Shown: positions 2,495 through 46,318, numbered from the stretch's first letter. The stretch: 64,000 nucleotides of DNA from an uncultured Hydrogenophaga sp. (GCA_964650505.1 CAZYUD010000009.1:10335-74334); one strand, 5' to 3'. Made by a program: numbers and translations. The notes: generated by a model from the sequence alone, not told the origin.

Positions 2495-2496
2495 CC

Positions 2497-3351: not shown

Positions 3352-3389
3352 GGCGTGTGCACCGACCTAATTTATTGCAGGACAACCCC

Positions 3390-26393: not shown

Positions 26394-26414
26394 TCCCCCC
26401 GCACGGAATGAACA

Positions 26415-26488
26415 TCCCCCCGCGCCGCTTCGCGTCACCCCCCAGGGGGCAACACCTGCAGCCCGGCAAAGCCGGTTCTGCGGTGTTC
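26415..26488 (+). repeat. Structured intergenic repeat, copy 1 (GC-rich triple-hairpin element)
   Basis: CCCCCCGCGCCGCTTCGCGTCACCCCCCAGGGGGC...CCGGCAAAGCCGG...CTGCGGTG. It begins 22 nt after the pheS stop. It shares the core with copies at 40964, 43808 and 46208. Confidence 0.7.
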
Positions 26489-26528
26489 CGGACGAAAGCC
26501 ATTGTCGTGCCACGTACTGAGTCCTTAC

Positions 26529-28949
26529 ATGCAATTCCCTGAATCCTGGCTGCGCGCCTTTTGCAACCCACCCCTGAGCAGCCAACAGTTGGCCGACACC
26601 TTGACCATGGCGGGTCTGGAGGTGGAAGAGCTGCAGCCGGTGGCGCCCGCGTTCACCGGTGTGGTGGTGGGGCAGATCCTGAGTGCCGAACAGCACCCCA
26701 ACGCCGACCGCCTGCGCGTGTGCCAAGTGGACGTGGGGCAGGGCGCGCCCTTGAACATTGTGTGCGGCGCCCCGAACGCGCGCGCTGGCATCAAAGTGCC
26801 CTGCGCCACCGTGGGTGCCTTGTTGCCGCCGGGCGAGGACGGCAAGCCCTTTGCCATCAAGCTCGGCAAGCTGCGCGGCGTGGAGAGCCAGGGCATGTTG
26901 TGCTCGGCCAAAGAGCTGCAGGTGTCGGAAGAAGGCAGCGGTCTGCTGGAGCTGGCCGATGATGCGGTGGTCGGCCGCAACATCCGCGAGCAACTGGGCT
27001 TGGACGACATGCTGTTCACCTTGAAGCTCACGCCCAATTTGGCCCATTGCCTGAGCGTGTATGGCATTGCGCGCGAGGTGTCGGCGCTGACCGGTGCGCC
27101 GCTGCAGCAGCCCACTTTTGCAACGGTGCCAGTGGCGGTATCCGATCGGCTGGCGGTGGATGTGCAAGCGCCCGACCTGTGCGGCCGTTTCAGCGGCCGG
27201 GTGGTGCGTGGTGTGAACACCCAAGTCAAGACCCCGGCCTGGATGGTGGAGCGGCTGGCGCGCTGTGGCCAGCGCAGCGTCTCGCCGCTGGTGGACATTT
27301 CCAACTACGTGATGTTCGAGTTGGGCCGCCCATCGCACATTTTTGACCTCGACAAGATCCACGGCGGTCTGCAGGTGCGCTGGGGCCGCGCCGGTGAACA
27401 GCTCAAGCTGCTCAATGGCAACACCATTGCCGTGGACGCGGAGGTTGGCGTGATCGCCGATGACCATCAGGTCGAGTCGCTGGCCGGCATCATGGGCGGC
27501 GACGCCACCGCCGTGTCGGACGACACGCAGAACATCTTCATCGAAGCCGCTTTCTGGTGGCCCAAAGCCATTGCCGGCCGTTCGCGCCGCTACAACTTCA
27601 GCACCGACGCCGGTCACCGCTTCGAGCGTGGCGTGGACCCTGCCACCACAGTGGAACATGTGGAGCGCATCACCGCATTGGTGTTGGAGATTTGTGGTGG
27701 CCAGGCGGGCCCGATCGACGACCAAACCCTGGTCTTGCCCGACGGCAAACCGGTGAGCCTGCGGGTGGCGCGCGCGGCCAAGGTGATTGGCATGCCGCTG
27801 ACCCAAGCCCAGTGCGCCGACGCCCTGAAGCGCCTGGGCCTGAGCGTGACCGAAGGCGAAGGCACGGTGACGGTGGCGCCGCCAAGCTTCCGCTTTGACC
27901 TGCAGATCGAAGAAGACCTGATCGAAGAGGTGGCGCGGGTCATCGGTTACGAGCAGCTGCCGACCACACCGCCGTTGGCGCCGATCACGCCGAAGCTGCG
28001 CGCTGAGGCCAAGCGTGGTCCGTTTGCGGTGCGCCGGCAACTGGCGCAGCTGGGCTATCTGGAAACCATCAATTTCAGCTTTGTCGACGAACGCTGGGAG
28101 CGTGAGTTGGCGGGCAATGCCGACCCCATCAAACTGCTCAACCCCATCGCGAGCCAGATGAGCGTGATGCGCTCTTCGCTGCTGGGCAGCTTGGTGTCGG
28201 TGCTCAAGTTCAACATCGACCGCAAGGCGCCGCGTGTGCGCCTGTTCGAGCTGGGCCGGGTGTTCCACAAAGACGCCAGCGTGGTCGACAGCGACACCAG
28301 CGTGGCTGGCTTTGCCCAGCCCATGCGGGTGGCCGGTTTGGCCTGGGGCGGCGTGGACACGCTGCAGTGGTCGGGCGACAAGCGCAGCGCCGACTTCTTT
28401 GACATCAAAGGCGATGTGGAGGCCTTGCTGGCGCCCCGCCAAGCCCGTTTTGTAGCCGCCGAGCACCCCGCCATGCACCCGGGCCGCTGTGCCGCCGTGT
28501 GGCTCGACGAGGTGTGCATTGGCCACGTGGGCGAGCTGCACCCGCGCTGGCGCCAGGGCTACGAGCTGCCCAGCGCACCGGTGATGTTTGAGCTGTCGCT
28601 CGACGCGGTGCTGGCCAAAGGCCTACCGACTTTCAGTGGCGTGAGCCGCCACCAGCCGGTGGAGCGCGACCTGGCCGTGGTGGTGCAAGAGGCGGTGTCG
28701 CACGATGCCGTCATGCAAGCGGTGCGCGACGGTGCGGCCGCTTCGGGGCTGCTCAAAGACGTGGTGCTGTTTGACGTCTACCGCCCCAAGACCGACGGCA
28801 TGGGTGGCGTGGCCAGTGGTGAAAAAAGCCTGGCCATTCGCCTGCACTTGCACGCCGCCGACGCGACCTTGCAAGACGAACAGATTGACCAAGTGATACA
28901 CGCGGTGTTGGCCAGCTTGGCCGAACGCGTACAGGCCCGACTGCGCTAA
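26529..28949 (+). CDS. pheT: Phenylalanine--tRNA ligase beta subunit
   Basis: MQFPESWLRAFCNPPLSSQQLADTLTMAGLEVEE... tRNA-binding, B3/4, B5 and FDX-ACB domains. It is 806 aa. Confidence 0.95.
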   Translation: MQFPESWLRAFCNPPLSSQQLADTLTMAGLEVEELQPVAPAFTGVVVGQILSAEQHPNADRLRVCQVDVGQGAPLNIVCGAPNARAGIKVPCATVGALLPPGEDGKPFAIKLGKLRGVESQGMLCSAKELQVSEEGSGLLELADDAVVGRNIREQLGLDDMLFTLKLTPNLAHCLSVYGIAREVSALTGAPLQQPTFATVPVAVSDRLAVDVQAPDLCGRFSGRVVRGVNTQVKTPAWMVERLARCGQRSVSPLVDISNYVMFELGRPSHIFDLDKIHGGLQVRWGRAGEQLKLLNGNTIAVDAEVGVIADDHQVESLAGIMGGDATAVSDDTQNIFIEAAFWWPKAIAGRSRRYNFSTDAGHRFERGVDPATTVEHVERITALVLEICGGQAGPIDDQTLVLPDGKPVSLRVARAAKVIGMPLTQAQCADALKRLGLSVTEGEGTVTVAPPSFRFDLQIEEDLIEEVARVIGYEQLPTTPPLAPITPKLRAEAKRGPFAVRRQLAQLGYLETINFSFVDERWERELAGNADPIKLLNPIASQMSVMRSSLLGSLVSVLKFNIDRKAPRVRLFELGRVFHKDASVVDSDTSVAGFAQPMRVAGLAWGGVDTLQWSGDKRSADFFDIKGDVEALLAPRQARFVAAEHPAMHPGRCAAVWLDEVCIGHVGELHPRWRQGYELPSAPVMFELSLDAVLAKGLPTFSGVSRHQPVERDLAVVVQEAVSHDAVMQAVRDGAAASGLLKDVVLFDVYRPKTDGMGGVASGEKSLAIRLHLHAADATLQDEQIDQVIHAVLASLAERVQARLR

Positions 28950-28953
28950 GGAC

Positions 28954-29283
28954 ATGACCATGGATTTCGCCGTTGACAGCCTGGAAACCCCAGCGCTCAC
29001 CAAAGCCCAGCTCGCCGACATGCTGTTTGATCAGATTGGTCTGAACAAACGCGAGTCCAAAGACATGGTCGATGCGTTTTTTGATCTCATCACCCACAGC
29101 CTGGTCGAAGGCCAAGACGTCAAGATCTCGGGTTTTGGCAACTTTCAAATCCGCACCAAAGCGCCGCGCCCGGGCCGCAACCCCCGCACGGGTGAGCCGG
29201 TGGCGATTGAAGCGCGGCGGGTGGTGACTTTCCACGCCAGCCCCAAGCTCAAGGAGCAGGTGCAAAGTGGTGAGCTTGCTTAA
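28954..29283 (+). CDS. ihfA: Integration host factor alpha subunit
   Basis: LTKAQLADMLFDQIGLNKRESKDMVDAFFDLITHSLVEGQDVKISGFGNFQIRTKAPRPGRNPRTGEPVAIEARRVVTF... The position after pheT is canonical. Confidence 0.9.
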   Translation: MTMDFAVDSLETPALTKAQLADMLFDQIGLNKRESKDMVDAFFDLITHSLVEGQDVKISGFGNFQIRTKAPRPGRNPRTGEPVAIEARRVVTFHASPKLKEQVQSGELA

Positions 29284-29375
29284 GGGCGCCGAGTGAAACC
29301 CCGATGTGTCACTGCCTTTGCTGAAAAAGCCATTGTGCAGTAAAGTCTTAGGCTGTTCTTTTCACGTACGGTCAC

Positions 29376-29774
29376 ATGGACAATGGTCTGCCAAGCATCC
29401 CGGTCAAACGCTACTTCACCATCGGTGAGGTAGGCGACCTCTGTGGTGTCAAACCCCATGTGCTGCGTTACTGGGAGCAGGAGTTCACTCAGCTGCGCCC
29501 CATGAAACGGCGTGGCAATCGCCGCTATTACCAGCACCATGAGGTGTTGATGATCCGCCGCATCCGCGAGCTGCTGTACGAGCAGGGCTTCACCATCAGT
29601 GGCGCACGCAACAAGTTGCAGGAGATCGCTGCACACGAACGCGGGCAGCGCCGCGACGATGCGCCTGTGGCTGTGCCATCGACCGTGGCCTTGCCCCCGT
29701 TGTCACTGGCCGAGGGCGCTGCGGTGGACCTGCGCAGTGAGCTGGCCAAGATTCGCGAGCTGCTCGTTTTTTGA
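29376..29774 (+). CDS. MerR-family transcriptional regulator
   Basis: YFTIGEVGDLCGVKPHVLRYWEQEFTQLRPMKRRGNRRYY is a MerR HTH. A conserved MerR-like gene follows ihfA in Betaproteobacteria. Confidence 0.85.
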   Translation: MDNGLPSIPVKRYFTIGEVGDLCGVKPHVLRYWEQEFTQLRPMKRRGNRRYYQHHEVLMIRRIRELLYEQGFTISGARNKLQEIAAHERGQRRDDAPVAVPSTVALPPLSLAEGAAVDLRSELAKIRELLVF

Positions 29775-29805
29775 GACTCAAAAGCAGGCTATAATTGTGG
29801 TCTTG

Positions 29806-29883
29806 TCGGCGTGTAGCGCAGCCTGGTAGCGCACTTGCATGGGGTGCAAGGGGTCGCGAGTTCGAATCCCGCCACGCCGACCA
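29806..29883 (+). tRNA. tRNA-Pro (anticodon GGG)
   Basis: Acceptor stem CGGCGTG/CACGCCG. D-arm GCGC-AGCCTGGTA-GCGC. Anticodon stem CTTGC/GCAAG with loop ATGGGGT, giving anticodon GGG. T-loop TTCGAAT, and a 3' ACCA. TATAAT at 29790-29795 sits upstream. Confidence 0.85.
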
Positions 29884-29898
29884 TTTATACCGAACAAC

Positions 29899-29932
29899 GG
29901 CCCACAAACTCAGAGTTTGTGGGCCGTTTTTT
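29899..29932. terminator. Rho-independent terminator after tRNA-Pro, convergent with the minus-strand operon
   Basis: 12-bp stem GGCCCACAAACT / AGTTTGTGGGCC, loop CAG, then T7. Confidence 0.8.
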
Positions 29933-29948
29933 TATGGTGTTGTGCGAC

Positions 29949-31283
29949 TCAGCGCGCGTAGGGCGGCACCGCGGCAATGGCCGCCCAGTTCGCTTCAATC
30001 ACGCCACGCAGCGCAGCGCTGGGCACACGGGCGGGATCGCCCAAAAACTCCAGGGTGCGTTTTTGGTTGCGCGAGAAGTGCACCGCCAGCCGCAGCGACG
30101 CGGCGGCGGTGTTGGCCTCGTTGGTCTCGGCCATGAGTTCGGCGAGGTTGCTCCAGGCGTTGGTTCGGGTAGGGGCCATCAGCAAAGCGGTGACCAGGTT
30201 CTGCTGCGCGCTGTCGTGGCGGCCCAGGCGCAGCTCGGCAAAGCCCAGGTTGTTGCGGATTTCGGCGTCGTTGGCGTTGGACTGCACGCCCATCTCAAAC
30301 AGGCCGTGGGCCGCGACCCAGTCGCCTTGGTTGATGAGGTCGAGCCCGCCTTGGTTGAAGGCGCGGGCGGTGGCTTTGTCTTTCACCAAATGGGTTTGGG
30401 GCCGCTTCTCGCGCAGCAGGGCTCGCACGCCGGCCCAGTCGTCGGTGGCGGCCATGCGCAGCAGGGCGTTGAGATCGTCGGTGTTGAGCACCACGGCCGA
30501 GGTGGTCTGGCTGTCGCTGATGGGCGGAGGTGCTTGCAGCTGCGCCACACCCGAGCGGGTGAGCGCGCTGGCGGTGTCGCTGGACAGGCTCGGTGTGTCG
30601 AGGGCTTGCACCAACAGATAGCCACCCAAGCCGAGCGCCGCGCCCACCAGCCACCAAGCCCAGGAAGAAGAGGCTTTGGGGGAGGGCTCTGCGGCTGCTG
30701 TGTGGGCTTGTTCTAAGGGCGGCTCGTCGGCGCTGGGCTCGGGCAGCTGGCGCACGCCCCAGATTTCGGCCAAGGGCTGACCACGGTGCACGGTGTCGCC
30801 CACCTTGACCAGCAGGGCGCGGACCTGGCCGTCGCAGTCGCTGGGTATCTCAAAAATGAAGTCGTCGGTCTCTAAACACACCACGGCTTGGTCTGCCGTG
30901 ACGGAGTCGCCCACTTGCACCATCACTGCGGAGACCAGCGCTTCGGTGGCGTCACCAAAATCGGACAGGGCAACGGTGTGCAGGGCGGCGCTGGGCGCTG
31001 GTGCCGCTGGGTCTGCCGCGCCCAGTGCCGGCGCGGCCTCGTATACGGGGGTGACAGGGGCGTCCGCTGCTGCGGGTGAGGCCACAGCGGCCACTGGCTC
31101 TATGGGGACGGGTGCCGGTGCAGGTGCGTGTGCGGCGGCCTCAGGCACGAGCGCGGGTGTGGGTGCGGGGGGCGCAATGGGGCTGGCCTCGGCGGTGTCT
31201 CCAGAGTTGGGCACCACTGTGCCGCATTGGATGCACACCCGTGCGGTGTGGCGCAGCGTGGCGCCGCAATGGCTGCAAAGCAT
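29949..31283 (-). CDS. Gene F of the novel operon: zinc-ribbon / lipoyl-like barrel / TM / TPR protein (444 aa)
   Basis: An N-terminal CxxC-x11-CxxC zinc ribbon (CSHCGATLRHTARVCIQCG) and a Pro/Ala-rich linker. A biotinyl/lipoyl-like segment follows (VMVQVGDSVTADQAVVCLETDDFIFEIPSDCDGQVRALLVKVGDTVHRGQPLAEI). One TM helix (WAWWLVGAALGLGGYLLV) precedes C-terminal TPR-like repeats. It starts 18 nt after the gene E stop. Confidence 0.6.
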   Translation of the reverse strand: MLCSHCGATLRHTARVCIQCGTVVPNSGDTAEASPIAPPAPTPALVPEAAAHAPAPAPVPIEPVAAVASPAAADAPVTPVYEAAPALGAADPAAPAPSAALHTVALSDFGDATEALVSAVMVQVGDSVTADQAVVCLETDDFIFEIPSDCDGQVRALLVKVGDTVHRGQPLAEIWGVRQLPEPSADEPPLEQAHTAAAEPSPKASSSWAWWLVGAALGLGGYLLVQALDTPSLSSDTASALTRSGVAQLQAPPPISDSQTTSAVVLNTDDLNALLRMAATDDWAGVRALLREKRPQTHLVKDKATARAFNQGGLDLINQGDWVAAHGLFEMGVQSNANDAEIRNNLGFAELRLGRHDSAQQNLVTALLMAPTRTNAWSNLAELMAETNEANTAAASLRLAVHFSRNQKRTLEFLGDPARVPSAALRGVIEANWAAIAAVPPYAR

Positions 31284-31301
31284 GTGGGGGTTCCGGGTGG
31301 C

Positions 31302-32699
31302 TCAGACGGTGATGGTCACGCCGCGCAGTTGCGCGAGCTGGCGGATGAAGGCTTCGGCCGCGACCGGGGTGGGTGCCAAGCCGAAGGTCACAGCGAGGTG
31401 GATGAGGGTGGCCAGTTCGCTGGCATCAATTTCACCGTTGCTGGCGGCGCCGTCAAAGGCCAGGTTGAACGCCTGTTGCGCGCCAGCGGGTGGGGCGGCT
31501 GGGGCTGGAGCTGCCGCCGGCGCGGCGGCTGGGCTGTTGACCGGGGGCTGTGAGCCCGGTGGCAGGCGGCGCTGGTATTCGCTGAGGATCTGCGGTTCGG
31601 CGTCGGCGGGGAAGGACACGCCTTCGGCGTCGTCGGTGCTGCGGATCAGCAGCTGGCCCAGGGCTTGGCCTTTGGAAATGGCGGTGAGTGCCACTTGGCG
31701 GGCGGAGTAGGGGCCTTGTTCGCCGCGTTCGGTGACCACAAAAAACGCCACTTGGCTGCTGAGCACACCGGCCGGGCGCGCGGGCGGGGCGCTGCGCTGC
31801 GGGGGGCGGCTGATGCCGGTGAGATTACCGCCCAAGTTCATGCCGCCCAAGATGAGCGGGCCGTTGCCCGATTCGAGGCCTTTGCCCAGGCCTTCGAGCG
31901 CGGAGCGCTGGGCCTGGATCATGTTGAATTCGGCAAAACCGTCGTTGGTGGCAAGCTGCATGCCTTTGGCTTGCAGCGCGAGTTGGGCTTCTTGTTTGCC
32001 GAATTCGCGCAGCAGGGCAAAGCTGGCCTCGTCCAGCGCCAGCGCCATGTCGAACACACGACCGATGTCGATGCCCAGCGGCACAAATTCGCTGCGGGCG
32101 AGGGTTTTGACGTCTTCGCTCAGTGCCTCGGCGTCGACGTTGGACACCACGTTGAGGATGGGCATGCGCTGGGCGCGCTGGCCCACAGCGGCGCGCAGCT
32201 GATTGAACATGCGGCCGTTGAAGGCGGTTTCGATGTTCGACTCCGACCCCGCATGTTGGCCGCCCAGTTCAATGACCAGGCGCGCCGGGTCGGTCACCTT
32301 GACGGTGTACGACAAGCTGCCGCGCATGGCGACCACGTTGGCGGAGTTCAGGTCTTTGTATTGCCCCAGTTCGGTGCGCGGGGCGTCGAAGCGCTTTTCG
32401 CTGAGCCGAACAAAAAACACCTCACAAATGAAGTGGTTGGCGTCGGTGAACTTGTCGATCAGCAGGTGACCGAGGAAGGGAATGTTGGCGGTGTCGAGCT
32501 GGACGGTGGTGCCCGGGTTGATCTTGCCGATGTACTTGCCTTCGCGAAAGAAAAGCACACATTCGTCGCTGCGTACAGTGAGTTTGGTGCCGCGCGGAAT
32601 CGATTTGTCGGGATGCAAGTAGATGAGGTCGTCCGCCCGATCGGCCGGACGGGCCACGTACATCGATTTTGTTTCTTTGCTGAACCAGCCTAAAACCAT
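31302..32699 (-). CDS. Gene E: YdjI/COG4260-like SPFH (band-7) family protein with C-terminal extensions (465 aa)
   Basis: The N-terminal ~260 aa align with B. subtilis YdjI (DDLIYLHPDKSIPRGTKLTVRSDECVLFFREGKY...ANIPFL). A GYF/DUF4339-like block then follows (FFVVTERGEQGPYSARQVALTAISKGQALGQLLIRS). A Pro/Ala linker and a small C-terminal helical domain complete the protein. An SD GAGGA lies upstream. Confidence 0.6.
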   Translation of the reverse strand: MVLGWFSKETKSMYVARPADRADDLIYLHPDKSIPRGTKLTVRSDECVLFFREGKYIGKINPGTTVQLDTANIPFLGHLLIDKFTDANHFICEVFFVRLSEKRFDAPRTELGQYKDLNSANVVAMRGSLSYTVKVTDPARLVIELGGQHAGSESNIETAFNGRMFNQLRAAVGQRAQRMPILNVVSNVDAEALSEDVKTLARSEFVPLGIDIGRVFDMALALDEASFALLREFGKQEAQLALQAKGMQLATNDGFAEFNMIQAQRSALEGLGKGLESGNGPLILGGMNLGGNLTGISRPPQRSAPPARPAGVLSSQVAFFVVTERGEQGPYSARQVALTAISKGQALGQLLIRSTDDAEGVSFPADAEPQILSEYQRRLPPGSQPPVNSPAAAPAAAPAPAAPPAGAQQAFNLAFDGAASNGEIDASELATLIHLAVTFGLAPTPVAAEAFIRQLAQLRGVTITV

Positions 32700-32714
32700 G
32701 GTGTCCTCAGTGGG

Positions 32715-33140
32715 TCATTGCCCGTTGGTGGGATCTTCGTAGGTGCGGCGGTCGCTGGCTTTGGGCAAGGGCGCGGCGCTGCGCCCGGCCAACAGCGGCA
32801 GGGCGACGGTGAGCAGCAGCGACAGGCCAACGACACCCCACACTGGTGTGGGCACGTCGTTGACCTGGGCGATGTCGCCGCCATAGACCACAAACATGCC
32901 GATGGTGGTGACGACCGTGACCAGCAAGGACACGATGTTGAGCCCCAGAGTGACGGCGCCATAGGTGAAATCGTCGGCGCGCAGGAGCTGGAACAGCGGG
33001 CCTTGCCAAACCACCACATACACATGCGCCAGCATCACGCCGAGCAGCGCCAAGTTGCCCGGCAGCTGCAGCGACGGCCAACCACACAGCAGCCACAGCA
33101 GCGGTGGCAGCACCAGGGTGAAGATCAGTCGGGTCATCAT
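32715..33140 (-). CDS. Gene D: small 4-TM membrane protein (141 aa)
   Basis: Four hydrophobic helices with no motifs. It overlaps the gene C stop by 4 nt (ATGA), indicating translational coupling. Confidence 0.55.
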   Translation of the reverse strand: MMTRLIFTLVLPPLLWLLCGWPSLQLPGNLALLGVMLAHVYVVVWQGPLFQLLRADDFTYGAVTLGLNIVSLLVTVVTTIGMFVVYGGDIAQVNDVPTPVWGVVGLSLLLTVALPLLAGRSAAPLPKASDRRTYEDPTNGQ

Positions 33141-34132
33141 GCGGTGTGGCAGACGGTTTGCAGAATCCAGCGCTCTTCGTCGGTGAGCGGCGCCAGGGCC
33201 TTGTCGAGCTGCTGGCGGCGGATGTTGGGCGCGTAGTGTTCAAACTCGAAGCCACATTTGAGCATTTGGGTCAGGCTGTTGACCGCTTCGCTGATTTTGG
33301 AAATGTCGCTGATGCGCCCGCCAATCGACAGCACCCATTTCTGCACCTGGCCTTGGTGCTCTTCGTCGAGCGCGGGGTTGGCCAAGGTGGTGGCGCGTAC
33401 CCAGTCGGTTTGCGGGTAGAGGCGGGCGTAGGCGGGGTACTTCACATCGGGTTGTTGCAGCCGGTTCATCAGCCCCCGGCCGTGGCGGATGGCGGGGTAA
33501 TACCGCACATCGGCATCCAACACGGTGCTTGGCGCGGTTTCCATGGGCGCAAACACTGGGGCGTTGAGGCTTTCACCCAGGCTGTGCAGCATGACGCAGT
33601 GGCCCTCAAAGGTGACGTCTCGGCTGGCGTAGCCGCCAATCGTGCTCATGCGCACCTTGAGGCTTTCGTCGACCAAGCAGGTGCCCAGCACCAGCGAGTT
33701 TTCCAGCACACAGTGGGTAGCGCGGATGCTGCCAAACACGATGGCGTTGCGCAGGTAGACGCCTTGGTTGACGGCGATGTCGCCTTTGACAATCACACGC
33801 GCGGCGTCCATGCCGTCTTGCAGACCGGGCAGGGGTTGCAGCGGGTCGTAGCGGCAGTTGAGAGAGCCGTTGATGGTGATGCCCGAGTCGAGCTGGATGC
33901 GGTGGGCGCCGGGGTTGAGCACTGTGTCGCCGCGCGAGACCACCGGGCCTTGCACATGCACATTGCCACGCAGCTCCAACGAGCGGCCATAGACCGAGCC
34001 GCCAATGCGCACCGCTTGTTCGCTGCCGTCGATGAGCACCGGAAACACCAGCTCGCGTTCGCTGGTGGGGAACACACTGCCGGCCACCGATCGGTTGACC
34101 ACCACGTTGCTGCCTTCTTGTTGCACGGCCAT
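33137..34132 (-). CDS. Gene C: bactofilin-like beta-helix repeat protein (331 aa)
   Basis: Residues ~10-190 show beta-helix periodicity rich in G/V/I/S (VVVNRSVAGSVF...VRIGGSVYGRSLELRGNVHVQGPVVSRGDTVLNPGAHRIQLDSGITINGSL). This resembles bactofilin/DUF583 or Toastrack-type folds. The C-terminal 140 aa are unassigned. Confidence 0.5.
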   Translation of the reverse strand: MAVQQEGSNVVVNRSVAGSVFPTSERELVFPVLIDGSEQAVRIGGSVYGRSLELRGNVHVQGPVVSRGDTVLNPGAHRIQLDSGITINGSLNCRYDPLQPLPGLQDGMDAARVIVKGDIAVNQGVYLRNAIVFGSIRATHCVLENSLVLGTCLVDESLKVRMSTIGGYASRDVTFEGHCVMLHSLGESLNAPVFAPMETAPSTVLDADVRYYPAIRHGRGLMNRLQQPDVKYPAYARLYPQTDWVRATTLANPALDEEHQGQVQKWVLSIGGRISDISKISEAVNSLTQMLKCGFEFEHYAPNIRRQQLDKALAPLTDEERWILQTVCHTA

Positions 34133-34134
34133 GC

Positions 34135-35241: not shown

Positions 35242-35254
35242 GGCGGCTCCTCGG

Positions 35255-37348: not shown

Positions 37349-37360
37349 GTGGGGACCTCC

Positions 37361-37440
37361 TAAAGCGGTCAAAAATCCAATGAAATCTATCAATTGTTAT
37401 TTTTTATTGTCAAAAATTCCAATAAACCCAGGCAGACCAT
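37361..37440 (-). promoter_or_regulatory. AT-rich promoter region of the six-gene operon with a direct repeat
   Basis: ~30% GC. GTCAAAAATCCAAT at 37368-37381 is repeated as GTCAAAAATTCCAAT at 37410-37424. It lies immediately upstream of gene A. Confidence 0.45.
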
Positions 37441-37645
37441 CAAGAATGTCAGTCGTAGGTGCTGCAAAGCGCTGCATTCGGCAGGCACAACTCATGCCAT
37501 AGCGTTCCTTGTGTGCGGCGCTTGGTGAAAACCCCAGACATGCGGGCGACAGCGGCGTATTGGCGCGGCCCACAAACTTCCTAGAATGGCTTTTGAAAAC
37601 GAACGACCGTTCTTTTATCTGGCAACCGCATTCAAGGAGAGTGGA

Positions 37646-39754: not shown

Positions 39755-39787
39755 TGACCGCTTGCACAACGATTTAAGGACACCATC

Positions 39788-40963
39788 ATGACCAACGCTG
39801 TCATCGTTTCCACCGCCCGCACGCCCCTGACCAAAAGCTGGAAGGGCGCCTTCAACATGACCCACGGTGCCACGCTCGGTGGCCATGCGGTGCAGCACGC
39901 TGTTGAGCGCGCCGGCATCGACGCCGCCGAGGTCGAAGACGTGATCATGGGCTGCGCCAACCCCGAGGGCGCGACCGGTGCCAACATCGCGCGCCAGATC
40001 GCGCTCAAGGCCGGCCTGCCGATCACCGTGTCGGGCATGACCGTCAACCGCTTTTGTTCCTCGGGTTTGCAGACCATCGCCCTGGCCGCGCAACGCATCA
40101 TCGCCGGCGAAGGCTCGGTGTATGTGGCCGGTGGGGTGGAGAGCATTTCTTGTGTGCAGCAAGAGATGAACCAGCACATGCTCAAGGACTTGGCGCTCGA
40201 AAAACAAAAGCCCGAGATCTACTGGAACATGCTGCAGACCGCCGAACAAGTGGCCAAGCGCTACGGCATTGGCCGCGACGCCATGGACGAATACGGCGCC
40301 GCCAGCCAACAGAAGGCGGCGGCTGCGCTGGAAGCCGGCCTGTTCAAGGCCGAGATCGCGCCCATCACCGTGACCGCTGGCGTGGCCGACAAAGTGATGG
40401 GCTTGATGACCAAACAAGTGACGGTGGAGCACGACGAAGGCATTCGCCCTGGCACCACCTTTGACGCCATCCACGGCCTGCGCTCGGCGCTGCCCGGTGG
40501 CTTGGTGTCGGCCGGCAACGCCAGCCAGTTCAGCGACGGCGCGGGCGCTTGTGTGGTGATGGACGAGGCGCTGGCCGAGAAAAAAGGCTTGAAGCCGCTC
40601 GGGCGCTTCTTGGGTTTTGCGGTGGCCGGTTGCGAACCCGACGAAATGGGCATTGGCCCGGTGTTTGCGGTGCCCAAGGTGCTGTCGCGCCTGGGCCTGA
40701 AGGTCGGCGACATCGACCTCTGGGAACTCAACGAGGCGTTTGCGGTGCAGGTGCTGTATTGCCGCGACAAGCTGGGCATTCCGGCCGACCGGCTCAATGT
40801 GAACGGCGGCGCGATTGCGGTGGGCCACCCTTATGGCGTGTCGGGCCAGCGCCTGACCGGCCACGCCCTGATCGAAGGCAAGCGCCGGGGCGCCAAGCGC
40901 GTGTGCGTGACCATGTGCATTGGCGGGGGCATGGGCGCGGCCGGGGTGTTTGAGGTGTTGTAA
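39788..40963 (+). CDS. Acetyl-CoA C-acyltransferase (thiolase II)
   Basis: The active-site Cys context [10 protein letters not shown] and the C-terminal catalytic motifs [15 protein letters not shown] and CIGGGMGAA. Confidence 0.9.
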
Positions 40964-41062
40964 CGCCGCGCGCTGCGCGGACGTACAACACCCCCCCCGC
41001 GCCGCTGCGCGGCACCCCCCAGAGGGGGGCGATGCCTGTGGGCCGGCGGAGCCGGACCCACG
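40964..41062 (+). repeat. Structured intergenic repeat, copy 2
   Basis: CCCCCCCCGCGCCGCTGCGCGGCACCCCCCAGAGGGGGGCG...GGCCGGCGGAGCCGGACCCACGG begins 1 nt after the thiolase stop. Confidence 0.7.
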
Positions 41063-41123
41063 GCATCCTGGAGTTGGGGCACGCGCTCCGGACATTGTTG
41101 TTTGGCTTGACACTTCTTTGACC

Positions 41124-42962
41124 ATGGCTGTTCGACCTACCCTGGATTTTTTGTTGTACGACTGGTTGGGGGCGGCGGGTCTGAGCGAGCGGCCGCGTTT
41201 TGCCGACCACTCGCGCGAGACCTTTGGCGCGGTGTTGGACACCTGCGAGCGCATCGCGCGCGAGAAGTACGCGCCATTCAACCGGCTGGTCGACACCCAA
41301 GAGCCGCGCACCGAGCCCGATGGTGCGGGCGGCTTGCGGGTGGTGTTGCCGCAGGCCACCCACGACGCACACCGTGCCTATGTCGAGAGCGGCATGCTGA
41401 GCGCCGCGCAAGACTACAAGGTGGGCGGCATGCAATTGCCCTACACGGTGGAGGCCGCGGCCAATGCGTTGTTTGCCTGTGCGTCGGTGAGCATCGGCGC
41501 CGGCATGTTGACCACCGGCAACGCCAATTTGCTGATGGCGCACGGCAGCGAGGCGCAACAGCGGGTGTTTGCACTCAACGAGTTTGCCGGCCGCTGGTCG
41601 GGCACCATGTGCTTGAGTGAGCCGCAGGCCGGATCATCGCTCAGCGATGTGGCCACCCGCGCGCTGTCCGACGGCGACCAATTTGCCGCCGATCCACTGG
41701 GCCCGCGCTACCGGCTCAGGGGCAGCAAGATGTGGATTTCGGCCGGCGAACACGAGTTGACCGAGAACATCGTGCACCTGGTGTTGGCCAAGATCCCGGG
41801 GCCAGACGGCCAGTTGGTGCCCGGTGTCAAAGGCATATCGCTGTTCATCGTGCCCAAGCGGCTGGTGGACGTCGACGGCCAACTCACCGGCGAGCGCAAC
41901 GACGTGGCGCTGGCGGGCCTGAATCACAAATGTGGTTGGCGCGGCACCACCAACACGCTGCTCAATTTTGGCGAGGGCACCTACCCGGTGCGCGGCGCTC
42001 CAGGGGCCATTGGCTATTTGGTGGGGCAGCCCGGCGAAGGCCTGAAGTGCATGTTCCACATGATGAACGAGGCGCGCATCGGCGTGGGCATGGCCGCGAC
42101 CATGTTGGGCATGGCGGGCTACCTCGCGTCCTTGGAGTACGCCAAAAACCGGCCGCAGGGCAGGGCGATGGGGCCGGCCGGAAAAGACCCGGCCCAGCCG
42201 CAGGTGCGCATCATCGAACACGCCGATGTCAAGCGCATGTTGCTCGCACAAAAGAGCTACGCCGAAGGCGCGCTGGCGCTGGAGCTGTATTGCGCCCGCT
42301 TGGTGGATGAGCAGCACACTGGCTCTCCCGAGGCGACCAACGAGGCGCGCCTGTTGCTGGAGGTGCTGACGCCGATTGCCAAAAGCTGGCCCAGCGAATG
42401 GTGTCTGGAGGCCAATTCGCTCGCCATCCAGGTGCTCGGCGGCTATGGCTACACCCGCGACTTTCCGGTGGAGCAGTACTGGCGCGACAACCGCCTGAAC
42501 ATGATCCATGAGGGCACCCACGGCATCCAGGCCATGGACCTGTTGGGCCGCAAGGTGCTGATGGAAGGCGGGCAGGGTCTGCAGCTGCTGGCCGGGCGCG
42601 TCAACGCCACCATCGAGCGCGCGATTCAGGTGCCCGCCTTGGCCGAGCACGCCAACGCGCTGGGCAAAGCCTTGCAAGACGTGGACGCGGCCACCAAATC
42701 CGCCTGGGCCACGGGCGAACCGGTGCCCGCCCTGGCCAATGCGGTGCCCTACATGCAGGCCTTTGGCCACACCGTGTTGGCCTGGATCTGGCTGGACGTG
42801 GCGCTGGTGGCCCAAGCCGCGCCCGAGAGCCCTGCGCGCACCGGTCGGCTGGCCGCGGCGCGCTATTTTTTCCATTACGAGCTGCCCAAAATCGGCGCTT
42901 GGCTGCAGGTGGTGCGCACACGCGACACCACTTGCGCCGACATGCCCGAAGATGCGTTTTGA
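41124..42962 (+). CDS. Acyl-CoA dehydrogenase (long-form, ~612 aa)
   Basis: ACAD N-terminal, middle and C-terminal domains (GSKMWISAGEHELTENIVHLVLAK; EYRITDK-type C-terminal extension). The start was set at ATG 41124. The ORF-track start at 40920 lies in the repeat. Confidence 0.85.
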   Translation: MAVRPTLDFLLYDWLGAAGLSERPRFADHSRETFGAVLDTCERIAREKYAPFNRLVDTQEPRTEPDGAGGLRVVLPQATHDAHRAYVESGMLSAAQDYKVGGMQLPYTVEAAANALFACASVSIGAGMLTTGNANLLMAHGSEAQQRVFALNEFAGRWSGTMCLSEPQAGSSLSDVATRALSDGDQFAADPLGPRYRLRGSKMWISAGEHELTENIVHLVLAKIPGPDGQLVPGVKGISLFIVPKRLVDVDGQLTGERNDVALAGLNHKCGWRGTTNTLLNFGEGTYPVRGAPGAIGYLVGQPGEGLKCMFHMMNEARIGVGMAATMLGMAGYLASLEYAKNRPQGRAMGPAGKDPAQPQVRIIEHADVKRMLLAQKSYAEGALALELYCARLVDEQHTGSPEATNEARLLLEVLTPIAKSWPSEWCLEANSLAIQVLGGYGYTRDFPVEQYWRDNRLNMIHEGTHGIQAMDLLGRKVLMEGGQGLQLLAGRVNATIERAIQVPALAEHANALGKALQDVDAATKSAWATGEPVPALANAVPYMQAFGHTVLAWIWLDVALVAQAAPESPARTGRLAAARYFFHYELPKIGAWLQVVRTRDTTCADMPEDAF

Positions 42963-43005
42963 CGCAGGAAAAAACGAACCTGACCCCATTAAAAGGAGAC
43001 ACAGC

Positions 43006-43800
43006 ATGACAGAACGGCACGTGCACCAATTGCTGAATTTGACGGGCAAGACCGCGCTGATCACCGGCGGCTCGCGCGGGCTGGGGCTGCAAATGGCCCG
43101 GGCGCTGGGCGAGGCCGGCGCGCGGGTGCTGATCAGCTCGCGCAAGGCGGATGACTTGGAAGAGGCCACCGCCGAACTGCAGGCCGCCGGCATCGACACC
43201 CGGTGGACGGCGGCCGATTGCCAAAAGGAAGACGACATTCGCCGCTTGGCCAGCGACGCGTTGGAGCGCTTGGGCCGGGTCGATATTTTGGTCAACAACG
43301 CCGGCGCCGCTTGGGGCGCACCGGCCGAAGACCACCCGCTCGACGCCTGGGACAAGGTGATGAACCTGAACGTGCGCAGCTATTTCCTGCTGAGCCAGCT
43401 GATCGCCAAACTCAGCATGATTCCGCACAAAGGCGGCAGCATCATCAACACCGCCAGCATCGCTGGCTTGGGCGGCAACCCGCCCGAGATGAAGACGATT
43501 GCCTACAACACCTCCAAAGGCGCGGTGATCAACTTCACCCGCGCACTGGCGGCCGAGTGGGGCCACTACGGCATCCGCGTCAACGCGATTTGCCCAGGCT
43601 TTTTCCCGAGCAAGATGACCCAAGGCACCTTAAAAGCGATGGGTGAAGACAAACTCGCCGCCCACGCGCCGCTGCGCCGCCTGGGCGACGACGAAGACCT
43701 CAAAGGCATCACGCTGCTGTACGCCAGTGATGCGGGCAAGCACGTCACGGGGCAATGGCTGGCGGTCGATGGGGGTGTGTCGATCATCACTGGAGGCTAG
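43006..43800 (+). CDS. SDR-family oxidoreductase
   Basis: TGGSRGLG is a Rossmann motif. The YxxxK active site and a NAG-type motif are present. Confidence 0.85.
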   Translation: MTERHVHQLLNLTGKTALITGGSRGLGLQMARALGEAGARVLISSRKADDLEEATAELQAAGIDTRWTAADCQKEDDIRRLASDALERLGRVDILVNNAGAAWGAPAEDHPLDAWDKVMNLNVRSYFLLSQLIAKLSMIPHKGGSIINTASIAGLGGNPPEMKTIAYNTSKGAVINFTRALAAEWGHYGIRVNAICPGFFPSKMTQGTLKAMGEDKLAAHAPLRRLGDDEDLKGITLLYASDAGKHVTGQWLAVDGGVSIITGG

Positions 43801-43807
43801 GTGGTCC

Positions 43808-43885
43808 ACCCCCGCGCCGCGCCTTCGGCGCGTCACCCCCTCCAGGGGGCGGCACCGGCAGACCGGCGAAGCCGGATCTGCGGTG
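43808..43885 (+). repeat. Structured intergenic repeat, copy 3
   Basis: ACCCCCGCGCCGCGCCTTCGGCGCGTCACCCCCTCCAGGGGGCGGCACCGGCAGACCGGCGAAGCCGGATCTGCGGTG begins 8 nt after the SDR stop. Confidence 0.7.
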
Positions 43886-43931
43886 CCCTTGATTGAGTTC
43901 CCCCTCATTCGTGGCTCTGTATCCTTCCTGC

Positions 43932-44360
43932 ATGACCTTTCCTGTTTCGATTCCTTTTGTTGAGCACCTGGGTTTTGAGCTGCTGCACTTTGCGGACGGC
44001 CAGGCGCGCATTGCGTTCACGCCCCGGGCGGAGCACCTCAACTCGTTCAACGTGACCCACGGCGGCGCCAGCATGACGCTGCTCGATGTGGTGATGGCGC
44101 ACGCCGCCCGCTCGGTAGAGCCGGGTGTGGGCGCGGTCACGATTGAAATGAAGACCAGCTTTATGGCGGCCGCCACCGGGCCCCTGGTGGCGCACGGCAC
44201 GCTGCTGCAGCGCACCGCCACGCTGGCCTTTACCGAAGGCCGCATTGTGGACGCCGAGGGCAAGCTCTGTGCCCACGCCACCGGCACCTTCAAATACGTG
44301 CGGCGTTTGCCGGTGTCGGCCAGCAGCAGCCACGCCCTCAACAGCCCCGCCACCGATTGA
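43932..44360 (+). CDS. PaaI-family (hotdog-fold) thioesterase
   Basis: FNVTHGGASMTLLDVVMAHAA is the PaaI/YbdB core. The start was set at the internal ATG because the TTG at 43893 lies in the repeat. Confidence 0.75.
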   Translation: MTFPVSIPFVEHLGFELLHFADGQARIAFTPRAEHLNSFNVTHGGASMTLLDVVMAHAARSVEPGVGAVTIEMKTSFMAAATGPLVAHGTLLQRTATLAFTEGRIVDAEGKLCAHATGTFKYVRRLPVSASSSHALNSPATD

Positions 44361-44369
44361 ACACCCCCT

Positions 44370-45191
44370 ATGGACACTGCACACACAGACGCGCCGGTGG
44401 CGCTGGTCACGGGCGCGGCCCGGGGCATTGGGCTGGCCATCGCAGGCTGGTTTTTGCGGCAGGGCCACCGGGTGGCCATGCTCGACATCGACGCCCACAC
44501 ACTGGCCACCAGCCACGCGGCCTGGGTGGCCGAGAACGGCGCTGAGCGCCTGTTGGCGCTGCCGGCCGATGTGTCGAACGCGGCCCAGGTGGCCGATGCG
44601 GTGGCCGCCATTGAGGCCCGCTGGGGCCGGCTTGACGCGCTGGTGAACAACGCCGGTGTCGCGGTCTTCAAGCCCATTGGCCAGACCACGCTGGACGACT
44701 GGCGCTGGGTCATGGCCAGCAACCTCGATGGCCCGTTCATCTGCACCCAAGCCTGCGCGCCCCTGATGCTCCAACACGGTGGCGGCGCGGTGGTCAACAT
44801 CGCCTCCATCTCGGGCCTGCGCGCCAGCACCTTGCGCGTGGCCTATGGCACGTCCAAAGCGGCGTTGATTCACCTCACCAAACAGCAGGCGGTGGAATAC
44901 GGCAACGCGGGCATCCGCGTCAACGCGATTGCGCCCGGCCCGGTGGAAACCGAGATGGCCAAACAAGTGCACACACCCGCCATCCGCGCCGACTACCACG
45001 ACACCATTCCGCTGGCGCGTTACGGCTCGCTCGACGAAATCGCCAACGCGGTCGGCTTTTTGTGCAGCCCGCAGGCCAGTTATGTGAACGGCCAGGTGTT
45101 GGCGGTAGACGGTGGCTTTGACGCCGCCGGCGTGGGTCTGCCCACCTTGCGCCGCCCCCCCCGTTTGAACACATTTCACAGGAGACTTTGT
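44370..45191 (+). CDS. SDR-family oxidoreductase, read through into the next gene with no in-frame stop
   Basis: TGAARGIGLAIA...NNAGVAVFKP...YGTSKAA...VDGG covers the whole SDR fold by ~aa 250. A C8 tract at 45155-45162 sits 3 nt before an out-of-frame TGA, with a C7 tract the ORF would terminate at that TGA (45166-45168). Confidence 0.7.
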
Positions 45192-46208
45192 ATGCCCCAG
45201 AACCGCCAAATCGTGCTCGACAACCGCCCGCAAGGCGAGGCCACGGTGTCGAACTTCAAACTCGTCACCACCGACACGCCCGCGCTGCAAGACGGGCAGG
45301 TGCTGGTGCGCCACCACTACCTGAGCCTAGACCCCTATATGCGCGGTCGCATGAACGAGAGCAAGAGCTACGCCCAGCCCCAGCCCCTGGGCGAGGTGAT
45401 GATCGGCGGCACCGTGGGCGAGGTGGTGGAGTCGCGCCACCCCAAATTCAAAGCCGGTGACCCAGTGGTGGGCATGGGCGGCTGGCAGGAGTACAGCGTG
45501 GTTGACGCCAACGTGCCCGGCAACTTGCGCCGGGTCGACACCACCCATGTGCCGCTGTCGCATTACCTGGGCGCGGTGGGCATGCCGGGTGTGACCGCTT
45601 GGTACGGGCTGGTCAAAATCATCGAACCCAAGGCCGGAGAGACGGTGACGGTGAGCGCGGCCAGCGGCGCGGTGGGCAGCGCTTACGGCGCACTGGCCAA
45701 GGCGCGCGGTTGCCGCGTGGTCGGCATTGCCGGGGGCAAAGACAAGTGCGACTACGTGGTGAATGAACTCGGCTTCGACGCCTGTGTGGACTACAAAGAA
45801 CACGCCGATTACCTGAGCTTGTCCAAGGCCTTGAAGGCGGCCTGCCCGAACGGCATCGACGGCCATTTTGAGAACGTGGGCGGCATGGTGCTGGACGCGG
45901 TGATGCTGCGCACCAACGCCTTCGCGCGTGTGGCGGTGTGCGGCATGATCGCCGGCTACGACGGCGCGCCCCTGCCCATGGCCAACCCGGCGCTGATTCT
46001 GGTGAACCGCATGAAGGTGCAGGGCTTTATCGTCAGCGAGCACATGGAGGTCTGGCCCGAGGCGCTGTCCGAGCTGGGCCAGTTGGTGGGCTGCGGCCAG
46101 CTGCGCCCGCGCGAGACCGTGGCGCAGGGTATTGAGAGCGCGCCCGAGGCGTTTTTGGGGCTGCTCAAGGGCAAGAACTTTGGCAAGCAGCTGGTGAAAC
46201 TGGTGTAA
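45192..46208 (+). CDS. NADP-dependent oxidoreductase (MDR superfamily, CurA/YncB-like)
   Basis: It has its own SD AGGAGA and ATG. MPQNRQIVLDNRPQGEATVSNFKLVTTDTPALQDGQVLVRHHYLSLDPYMRGRM is the characteristic N-terminus. GAVGSAYGALAK is the nucleotide-binding motif. Confidence 0.85.
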   Translation: MPQNRQIVLDNRPQGEATVSNFKLVTTDTPALQDGQVLVRHHYLSLDPYMRGRMNESKSYAQPQPLGEVMIGGTVGEVVESRHPKFKAGDPVVGMGGWQEYSVVDANVPGNLRRVDTTHVPLSHYLGAVGMPGVTAWYGLVKIIEPKAGETVTVSAASGAVGSAYGALAKARGCRVVGIAGGKDKCDYVVNELGFDACVDYKEHADYLSLSKALKAACPNGIDGHFENVGGMVLDAVMLRTNAFARVAVCGMIAGYDGAPLPMANPALILVNRMKVQGFIVSEHMEVWPEALSELGQLVGCGQLRPRETVAQGIESAPEAFLGLLKGKNFGKQLVKLV

Positions 46209-46282
46209 CCCCCCGCGCCGCCTGCGGCGTCACCCCCCCAGGGGGCGCCACCTGCGGACCGGCGGAGCCGGATCCGCAGTGG
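46208..46282 (+). repeat. Structured intergenic repeat, copy 4
   Basis: ACCCCCCGCGCCGCCTGCGGCGTCACCCCCCCAGGGGGCGCCACCTGCGGACCGGCGGAGCCGGATCCGCAG overlaps the stop codon of the upstream gene. Confidence 0.7.
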
Positions 46283-46318
46283 CCTTGCTTGAGGCCTTGG
46301 CGCTCGAAAGGAGTTTGC

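Follow-up and report, generated by a model that had tools for sequence, protein, structure and literature searches.

An apparently undescribed family of triple-hairpin repeats placed directly after stop codons in Hydrogenophaga and related Burkholderiales

Four GC-rich repeats lie directly downstream of stop codons in a 64,000-nucleotide stretch of DNA from an uncultured Hydrogenophaga sp. (GCA_964650505.1 CAZYUD010000009.1:10335-74334), which was analyzed as a whole and is hereafter called the window; all coordinates are those of the whole window, and the copies are named c1 to c4. They represent a family of three-hairpin elements, ~85 to 135 nt long, that occurs in many genera, abuts the 3' ends of genes, and is predominantly sense oriented. 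With moderate confidence, we regard the family as a structured, co-transcribed element of mobile origin that is under host constraint and probably serves as a 3' RNA barrier or insulator. It resembles repetitive extragenic palindromic (REP) sequences and miniature inverted-repeat transposable elements (MITEs) in behavior but is a member of neither family. An earlier interpretation made from the sequence of the window by itself (the sequence-only reading) had described GC-rich, sense-oriented hairpin repeats at gene 3' ends in operons, a description that stands, and had likened them to REP sequences and bacterial interspersed mosaic elements (BIMEs), an assignment that does not. The tightness of the stop-codon anchoring, the spread across genera, presence or absence at orthologous sites, and purifying selection in situ had escaped it.

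The 5' part of the element consists of the stop codon of the upstream gene, a spacer of 0 to 12 nt, an unpaired run of cytosines (C-run), and hairpin 1. Hairpin 2 is formed by a second C-run paired with a run of guanines (G-run). Hairpin 3 opens with a freely varying outer stem and a bulge, continues with GCGG/CCGC and a C/UU internal loop, and closes with the apex CCGGC-RRA-GCCGG; a short conserved tail follows. The sequence of hairpin 1 is specific to subfamilies, with a UUCG-type loop being common; it is of the type GCGCCGC...GCGGCG in the window and GAAGCGCC-UUCG-GGCGCUUC in another subfamily.

As had been claimed, the four copies share one orientation: direct reading followed by alignment and a covariance model place them on the + strand, and a direct-repeat search unites c1 to c4 as family D1. 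The covariance model, R1, covers hairpins 2 and 3, was built from 63 family members, and was used to scan the whole window with filters off. The four copies scored 60.9 to 72.6 bits (E 6e-11 to 7e-9), and the next-best match in the window reached 17.9 bits (E 0.23). Given four matches and the wide gap to the next, the window holds exactly four copies, none of them degenerate and none antisense. Exact matches to the apex motif CCGGCRRAGCCGG occur in the window only at c1 to c4, and allowing one mismatch gives 5 matches against 1.59 expected. A partial match at 6653-6683 (family D8) was considered as a further copy and rejected, as no covariance-model match was found there. The copies and their parts are as follows.

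c1, 26391-26488, + strand: from stop codon to conserved tail, between pheS (TAA 26391-26393) and pheT (ATG 26529)
c1 parts, + strand: first C-run of the leader 26395-26400; C-run 1 26416-26421; hairpin 1 26422-26436; C-run 2 26438-26443; G-run 26445-26449; hairpin 3 26451-26487
c1 covariance-model match, 26434-26488, + strand: 72.6 bits
c2, 40961-41092, + strand: between a thiolase gene (TAA 40961-40963) and an acyl-CoA dehydrogenase gene (start ~41115)
c2 parts, + strand: extra 5' hairpin 40964-40983; C-run 1 40991-40998; hairpin 1 40999-41013; C-run 2 41015-41020; G-run 41024-41029; hairpin 3 41031-41067
c2 conserved tail, + strand: ends with GGCACGCGCTCCGGA at 41092
c2 covariance-model match, 41014-41068, + strand: 64.8 bits
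c3, 43798-43897, + strand: between a short-chain dehydrogenase/reductase (SDR) gene (TAG 43798-43800) and a hotdog thioesterase gene (ATG 43932)
c3 parts, + strand: C-run 1 43809-43813; hairpin 1 with cUUCGg loop 43814-43834; C-run 2 43836-43840; G-run 43845-43849; hairpin 3 43851-43887; tail CTTGATTGAG 43888-43897
c3 covariance-model match, 43834-43888, + strand: 72.5 bits
c4, 46206-46293, + strand: between an SDR-CurA fusion open reading frame (ORF; TAA 46206-46208) and an AidB-like acyl-CoA dehydrogenase gene (ATG 46319)
c4 parts, + strand: C-run 1 46209-46214; hairpin 1 46215-46231; C-run 2 46233-46239; G-run 46241-46245; hairpin 3 46247-46283; tail CTTGCTTGAG 46284-46293
c4 covariance-model match, 46230-46284, + strand: 60.9 bits

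The distance from the stop codon to the first C-run is 0 nt in c4, 1 nt in c1, 8 nt in c3, and 27 nt in c2, where the gap is filled by the extra hairpin at 40964-40983. A start 0 to 22 nt after the stop, as originally described, applies roughly to c1, c3, and c4 and fails for c2. The extents of the copies were likewise refined, the former c2 start of 40964 having included the extra upstream hairpin. Single-sequence folding gave z-scores of -1.1 (c1), -4.7 (c2), -2.9 (c3), and -3.0 (c4). The three hairpins previously proposed appear in the folds of c3 and c4; in the minimum-energy fold of c2, only hairpins 2 and 3 form, with the hairpin-1 region paired to the extra upstream hairpin, and hairpin 1 of c1 is weak. 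Copy c1 also contains a 10-nt direct repeat, ATCCCCCCGC, at 26393-26402 and 26414-26423, such that its order is stop codon, first C-run 1 nt after the TAA, 15 nt, and core C-run; the repeat could have arisen by partial duplication or be what is left of an older copy.

To follow the family further, one genome per species was searched with the fixed-length pattern GGGGGCNNNNCCNGNNGNCCGGCRRAGCCGG; loci are designated by L numbers, and all family-wide counts refer to copies among the loci listed. Genes in these loci were called with a home-made caller, which requires a long ORF with GC content by codon position in the order GC3 > GC1 > GC2 and which reproduces the genes of the window. A long, high-GC3 sense ORF ends just upstream in 125 of 152 testable copies, 16 of which also have a convergent gene downstream, while an antisense gene end alone lies nearby in 8 of the 152. 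Orientation relative to the upstream gene is therefore sense in ~94%, and enrichment at gene 3' ends, on which the sequence-only reading had staked itself, is borne out. The first C-run lies 0 to 12 nt past the stop in 112 of the 125 copies, often at 0 nt (TGAcccccccg, TAGcccaccccc). By strand of the neighboring genes, the ~112 classified copies divide into 82 (+,+), 16 (+,-), 8 (-,+), and 6 (-,-), and copies sit between co-transcribed genes such as pheS-pheT and etfB-etfA. The covariance model matched 15 times in 80 orthologous fatty-acid operons, each time on the strand of the operon. In a Variovorax plasmid annotated with the Prokaryotic Genome Annotation Pipeline (PGAP), the element begins at the last base of a same-strand coding sequence (CDS). 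Adjacency to the stop does not simply result from short spacers, as the stop is abutted even by 10 of the 15 copies that are followed by 150 nt or more of apparently non-coding DNA. The genes upstream show no functional theme (169 Pfam families in 109 proteins).

The stop codons themselves are TGA, TAA, and TAG in 66, 17, and 18% of cases, compared to a background of 76, 11, and 13% (p = 0.045); a TGA-specific target was rejected because this usage is near background. The third base of the final sense codon is A or T in 49.6% of copies, compared to 26.8% of 1200 background genes (p = 1.6e-8). The gap separating the real stop from the C-run often contains a vestigial TGA or ATG, and, where the real stop lies a few nucleotides upstream, a second TGA abuts the C-run ~4 times as often as estimated by chance, in a tally made by eye with no formal control.

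The structure of the element is under selection. The 3' half of the element was aligned without gaps for 128 distinct copies, in which 97.9% of 1920 hairpin-3 cells are paired, compared to 27 to 47% when partners are slid. Six hairpin-3 pairs show compensatory changes (217 cells, 3 to 5 pair types each), and the covariation score is 0.314 versus 0.100 in shuffles (0/500). All six of these pairs were left free on both sides by the search pattern and vary in 3 to 5 types, so the covariation was not made by the search. Hairpin 1 of the long Variovorax subfamily covaries as well (GCG..CGC, GCT..AGC, GCC..GGC). Compensatory substitutions among copies, the second property on which the earlier interpretation depended, are thus abundant in the hairpin stems. 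Pairing of the hairpin-2 loop (UCAA/CCAG) with the tail (UUGA/CUGG) as a pseudoknot was dropped, as manual tabulation gave no consistent covariation. Downstream of hairpin 3, copies in several genomes (L001, L083, L086, L087, and L105) carry a common extra module, C(C)TGGCATGGCCTGCTCCGCGGCC, and the tail of the window-type subfamily reads CTGGA-N-GGCACGCGCTCCGG (c2, L095, L122, L127, and L129); from these differences it follows that subfamily-specific 3' modules exist.

Individual copies are conserved once in place. Orthologs of c2 in L122, L127, and L129 are 85% identical to the window over 133 nt, and the c4 ortholog in L122 is 89% identical, with its first 46 nt unchanged. The core of c1 is ~91% identical (counted by eye) to a copy at the same pheS-pheT junction of a Curvibacter metagenome-assembled genome (MAG; L077), where the rplT-pheS-pheT region is syntenic with that of the window and PheS is 88.6% identical. 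By comparison, fourfold-degenerate sites of the flanking genes are 62 to 69% identical, and the remaining spacer is unalignable. Vertically inherited copies retain their copy-specific stems, with substitutions concentrated in loops, bulges, and the internal loop, and c1 and L077 differ by a compensatory A-U to G-C change in situ in stem 3b. Since a purely selfish insert would be expected to decay neutrally, identities of 85 to 91% against 62 to 69% point to host-level selection on individual copies.

To assess gain and loss of the element, junctions c2, c3, and c4 were compared across 80 metagenomic loci that encode an ortholog of the window acyl-CoA dehydrogenase (74 to 86% identity). The three junctions are mostly empty, with c3 spacers of 0 to 25 nt. 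In the closest relatives (L122, L126, L129, and L135), the c3 site is empty and consists of TGA plus 0 to 7 nt before the next start, with the same ...ITGG C terminus as in the window; in L122, it reads ...ggaggcTGAGTG, the stop abutting the start. The c3 site is filled in the window, L130, L143, L160, L157, L138, and L193. At c2, copies with the same copy-specific stems in L122, L127, and L129 indicate vertical inheritance, and the Variovorax-type copy that fills the same site in L168 and L187 is an independent insertion. The c4 site is filled in L122, L130, and L138 and is empty in L125, L126, and L135, whose spacers of 8 to 19 nt hold only a ribosome-binding site. Different subfamilies thus occupy the same junction in different lineages. 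A perfect 10-bp direct repeat, TGAAATGACC, lies on either side of the L157 insert, and the empty site of the relatives L171 and L177 reads TGAaATGACCgat; this comparison indicates that the stop/start junction of the coupled genes was duplicated with both ORFs left intact. Candidate duplications of 7 to 8 bp were seen in L109, L033, and L014. We read the elements as non-autonomous mobile insertions that land at or just after stop codons and have spread patchily among lineages.

In the interpretation we favor, such an element would insert at or just after a stop codon, sometimes duplicating the stop/start junction of coupled genes, and would then be transcribed within the mRNA of the upstream gene without terminating transcription. 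The host would keep the inserted copy under purifying selection for an action at the RNA level. A compact and very stable structure lying flush with the translated end, with no naked RNA past the stop, could block 3'-to-5' exonucleases and could also keep the terminating ribosome physically apart from the next cistron. The outcome would be a modest tuning of upstream message stability and of translational coupling.

Several points weigh against this interpretation. Action at the RNA level is inferred from orientation, position, and conservation only. Among mismatches in hairpin 3, G.U and A.C are equally frequent (15 and 15), so no strand-specific RNA signature is present and the covariation is equally expected of DNA hairpins. 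The genes of the loci were called with the home-made GC3/ORF caller. The spacing from stop codon to hairpin 1 varies over ~5 to 20 nt, which argues against a precise ribosome-structure mechanism. Roughly 5% of copies are antisense to their neighbors and survive, one example being L107, in which a copy at 2583-2637 (- strand) is antisense to the two genes on either side of it, etfA and the following + strand gene; the same locus has a sense copy between etfB and etfA ~1 kb upstream. Retention between pheS and pheT, whose subunits are needed 1:1, suggests that any effect on relative expression is small. Differential expression within the fatty-acid operon and between pheS and pheT, as had been proposed, is a hypothetical role; for pheS and pheT it appears doubtful, the orthologous copy in the Curvibacter MAG having been kept. 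Taken together, variable spacing and pheS-pheT retention imply that any effect is modest and independent of exact geometry.

Signs of the presumed mobility are likewise incomplete and count on the same side. Across all copies, the distribution of longest common substrings equals that of the mismatched-pair null, and no general target-site duplication (TSD) was detected. Terminal inverted repeats (TIRs) were not evident in 110 copies, in which the duplex energy of the 5' end with the 30-nt tail was like that of shuffled tails (mean z +0.13). Complementarity of the two ends was seen in a few copies only (L168, L045, L099, and L119), and a closing stem between C-run 1 and a tail G-run was rejected, being possible in few copies, with a G-run in just 18 of 110 tails. 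No transposase was noticed beside the copies inspected.

The main rival is that the repeats are purely selfish REP/MITE-like DNA, the hairpins being recognized by an undetected transposase, for example, an HUH/Y1 enzyme acting on single-stranded DNA, with position and orientation arising from target choice plus the purging of harmful insertions. We consider this rather unlikely. It would account for the patchy occupancy of orthologous junctions, including by different subfamilies, for the 10-bp duplication in L157, for a copy number that is very uneven between genomes, for the lack of functional bias among upstream genes, and for the lack of a G.U excess over A.C. GNA triloops form very stable DNA mini-hairpins, and the apical loops of the element, C-GAA-G and C-GGA-G, match them. 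The excess of A/T-ending last codons and the shift toward TAA and TAG also hint at an AT-rich target or an element-borne stop, although overall stop usage stays near background and is not specific for one codon. However, neutral decay does not describe copies that keep their own stems at 85 to 91% identity next to fourfold sites at 62 to 69%, and a sense bias of ~94% far exceeds what replication-strand bias would give. The absence of a general TIR or TSD and of a GTAG head also speaks against a selfish element of this kind.

We tentatively raise a further, rather improbable reading, namely, that the repeats are a new class of stop-anchored 3'-flanking RNA module whose conserved fold, with its unpaired C-run, three hairpins, and invariant CCGGC-RRA-GCCGG apex, would be read by a host factor and which would have spread by stop-directed, strand-specific insertion. 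The factor may be an RNA-binding protein, an RNase, Rho, or the terminating or recycling ribosome, and a sister family sharing the 5' module (see below) would make the whole a modular superfamily. If this reading is true, the host repeatedly acquires a ready-made post-termination control element.

An improbable alternative is a brake on translation termination, in which a structure located inside the ribosome footprint at the stop would stall terminating ribosomes, leading to mRNA cleavage, transfer-messenger RNA (tmRNA) tagging, and lower expression of the upstream gene. Ribosome stalling, mRNA cleavage, and tmRNA tagging are reported in PMC12306157 for E. coli REPs that lie no more than 15 nt from a stop, and the stable hairpins and the C-run 0 to 12 nt from the stop in 112 of 125 copies would fit this precedent. 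Hairpin 1, however, begins ~5 to 20 nt past the stop with no preferred spacing, the unpaired C-run fills most of the ribosome footprint, and a brake seems costly for upstream housekeeping genes such as pheS and etfB.

Very little probability attaches to an intrinsic terminator or attenuator separating transcription units. GC-rich hairpins do follow genes here, and one terminator-like match lies in the c2 tail (41074-41091), but just 1 copy of 155 has a T-run (T4+) in the 15 nt that follow hairpin 3, 12 of 155 have at least 5 T in a 12-nt tail, and the region contains 11 terminator-like sites versus 11.9 in shuffles. Copies also lie between genes that need co-expression (pheS-pheT, etfB-etfA), with 82 of ~112 between co-directional genes.

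It is just as hard to credit that the element codes, either for a read-through C-terminal extension or, MIRU-like (after the mycobacterial interspersed repetitive units discussed below), for a small coupling ORF from a 5'-edge ATG to the tail TGA. Stop-to-anchor distances are spread at random over the three phases (34/32/24), so that the upstream gene has no fixed frame with respect to the conserved core, which makes the element neither a read-through extension nor a conserved small ORF. Although an ATG is common at the 5' edge (ATGA, TGATG), a TGA is common in the tail (GCTTGA), and L022 and L054 have an in-frame 29-codon ORF from edge to tail, many copies lack the ATG, c2 and c4 among them, and different copies use two frames across hairpin 3 with varying loop lengths. 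Variation tracks base pairing rather than codons, and a duplicated or vestigial downstream start is the better explanation for the ATG (L157, L109).

An integron-type attC site or other site-specific recombination substrate has next to no probability: the strand-specific fold, the conservation of structure over sequence, and the position flush with the ORF 3' end are attC-like, but the R' box GTTRRRY occurs in 8 of 155 copies and the R'' box RYYYAAC in 4 of 155, the copies lie among core operon genes whose synteny is conserved, and no integrase was noticed in the vicinity of those inspected, although the window was not scanned gene by gene. Use of the tail TTGA as an outward -35 of a hybrid promoter was rejected on manual inspection, with no -10 at the right spacing in c3 or c4 and no promoter matches there.

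Among known elements, REP/BIME sequences are similar in being GC-rich, hairpin-forming, multicopy extragenic repeats with covarying stems that are co-transcribed in operons and 3' untranslated regions (UTRs). They are known mRNA 3' barriers and influence upstream translation when within 15 nt of the stop; PMC12306157, citing Liang et al. 2015, states that REP hairpins at this distance affect translation of the upstream gene. REP-associated tyrosine transposases (RAYTs) are reported to be essentially lacking in betaproteobacteria (PMC2817692). Unlike a REP, which is a single palindrome of 20 to 35 nt, the elements described here have three distinct hairpins plus C- and G-runs over 85 to 135 nt. 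Whereas BIMEs and REPINs consist of alternating inverted pairs, these copies are single and co-oriented (4/4 in the window and 15/15 in orthologous operons on the + strand), and one core is common to many genera. A GT[AG]G head was found in the 5' 40 nt of 43 of 155 copies at no fixed position, about the chance level that we estimated with no shuffled control, and its antisense equivalent in 22 of 155. Canonical REP/BIME membership was therefore rejected, there being no head excess, three hairpins, and no inverted pairs.

The MIRUs, reportedly described by Supply et al. in 1997, are said to be mycobacterial intercistronic repeats in one orientation whose ends abut or overlap the flanking stop and start codons. 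The present elements share the intercistronic position in operons, the single orientation relative to transcription, and ends at flanking stop or start codons, but MIRUs are tandem, have coupling ORFs, and lack a multi-hairpin fold, whereas these copies are single, structure constrained, and frame independent. Correia elements (Neisseria miniature insertion sequences, NEMIS) and the enterobacterial ERIC/IRU elements (enterobacterial repetitive intergenic consensus/intergenic repeat units) are also small, non-coding, and of mobile origin, are present or absent at orthologous sites, and are co-transcribed as RNA hairpins that alter mRNA processing or stability. Those elements, however, have clear terminal inverted repeats, defined duplications (TA for Correia), and both orientations, while no general TIR or TSD and a sense bias of ~94% are found here. 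The repeats show the MITE traits of small size, lack of coding capacity, multiple copies, and presence/absence polymorphism at orthologous sites, but a TIR-type MITE was rejected for lack of general 5'/3' complementarity.

Two strand-specific systems offer further partial parallels. Like attC sites, the elements fold strand specifically, lie flush with an ORF 3' end, conserve structure over sequence, and have bulged bases; unlike them, they lack R and L boxes and a cassette context, their neighbors being syntenic core genes. Palindrome-associated transposable elements (PATEs) derived from the IS200/IS605 family of insertion sequences are comparable in lacking TIRs, in having subterminal hairpins, and in strand-specific insertion by a short target, and the tail motif of the present family (CTTGA/CTGGA) resembles its 5' junction (YTGA). 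The stop usage of 66/17/18% is nevertheless unfit for a single tetranucleotide target, no cognate TnpA was found, and L157 shows a duplication, which IS200/IS605 insertion does not leave.

At least 120 loci matched the pattern and, among the matches listed, nearly all are from Burkholderiales genera. Those listed include Variovorax, Hydrogenophaga, Acidovorax, Curvibacter, Ramlibacter, Xylophilus, Rubrivivax, Piscinibacter, Aquabacterium, Roseateles, Rhizobacter, Pigmentiphaga, and others, belonging to the Comamonadaceae, the Sphaerotilaceae, and some Alcaligenaceae. The covariance model adds ~16 copies in these same loci that the strict pattern missed. Copies are sparse on Variovorax chromids, with a few per Mb, and denser in the window (4 per 64 kb) and in Hydrogenophaga palleronii (6 in 8 kb). 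The latter locus (L095, NZ_JAVDWU010000005.1, 8 kb) has the highest local density seen, with five copies on one strand and one convergent copy ~120 nt from another. A viral collection gave only four matches; one 41-kb 'viral' contig (IMGVR_UViG_3300047678_000835, L206 to L208) contains three copies, all on the same strand, and may be a prophage or a misclassified Burkholderiales fragment. A blastn search of plasmids with a window-type copy returned two matches, the query being too short and divergent for blastn.

No Rfam family matches the repeats: at gathering thresholds, the window gives only a tRNA gene (29807-29880), and a permissive Rfam scan around c4 gave nothing better than E = 4. A full-text literature search for the core sequence returned no relevant paper, and searches on REP, stop-codon, Burkholderiales, and Variovorax repeats returned only general work on REPs. 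The family is apparently undescribed. A sister repeat family occupies the SDR-thioesterase junction of L133, L137, L158, L173, and L200. Its 5' module is that of the main family (stop, C-run, hairpin, C-run, an inserted TCTCGGCTTCGCCGGGA hairpin, and G-run), and its 3' hairpin differs (GCAGCC...GGGGCGGCCCTTGC...GGCTGCC). The same inserted TCTCGGCTTCGCCGGGA hairpin is found inside main-family copies in L074 and L083. These observations suggest that the two families form a modular superfamily.

The genes flanking the copies in the window, which comes from a Comamonadaceae genome (63.3% GC), were identified with NCBIfam as pheS followed by pheT around c1; FadB-like, thiolase, and acyl-CoA dehydrogenase genes around c2; an SDR followed by a hotdog thioesterase around c3; and a 612-amino-acid SDR plus CurA-like ORF followed by an AidB-like dehydrogenase around c4. 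These are the genes named previously, except that the supposed medium-chain dehydrogenase/reductase (MDR) oxidoreductase is a single ORF in which an SDR is fused to a CurA-like domain. This ORF runs uninterrupted from 44370 to 46208, with the SDR at residues 10 to 250 and the CurA-like NADPH-dependent reductase at 279 to 611, and is either a true fusion or the result of a lost stop between two genes. The AidB-like ORF (46319-48085) contains a 126-bp element at 46636-46761, with 36-nt inverted arms that are 92% complementary (CCCTCACCCCAACCCTCTCCCGCCAGCGGGAGAGGG...), and its reading frame is intact; because the protein matches its family in two stretches, the element resembles a MITE-like insertion that preserved the frame. 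It has no relation to the triple-hairpin repeats, as the sequence-only reading had held.

The repeats also matter for annotation and operon models, since they mislead ORF callers. On the Methylibium petroleiphilum plasmid RPME01 (L202), a 339-amino-acid 'transposase' CDS is annotated at 2449-3468; only residues 12 to 61 contain a transposase helix-turn-helix. The remainder of the CDS reads in antisense through a copy at 3020-3074 and is therefore probably an over-extension. The covariance model can be used to map the whole family. If the interpretation favored here holds, environmental and plant-associated Betaproteobacteria, including Variovorax, Hydrogenophaga, Acidovorax, relatives of Rubrivivax/Leptothrix, and Pigmentiphaga, carry a repeat that is distinct from terminators and from classical REPs and MITEs, is tied to stop codons in the sense direction, and is maintained by selection. 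The family would then offer a test system for the effects of structured RNA just past the stop codon on termination, recycling, coupling, and mRNA decay, as well as for the strand-specific targeting of ORF 3' edges by a non-autonomous element.

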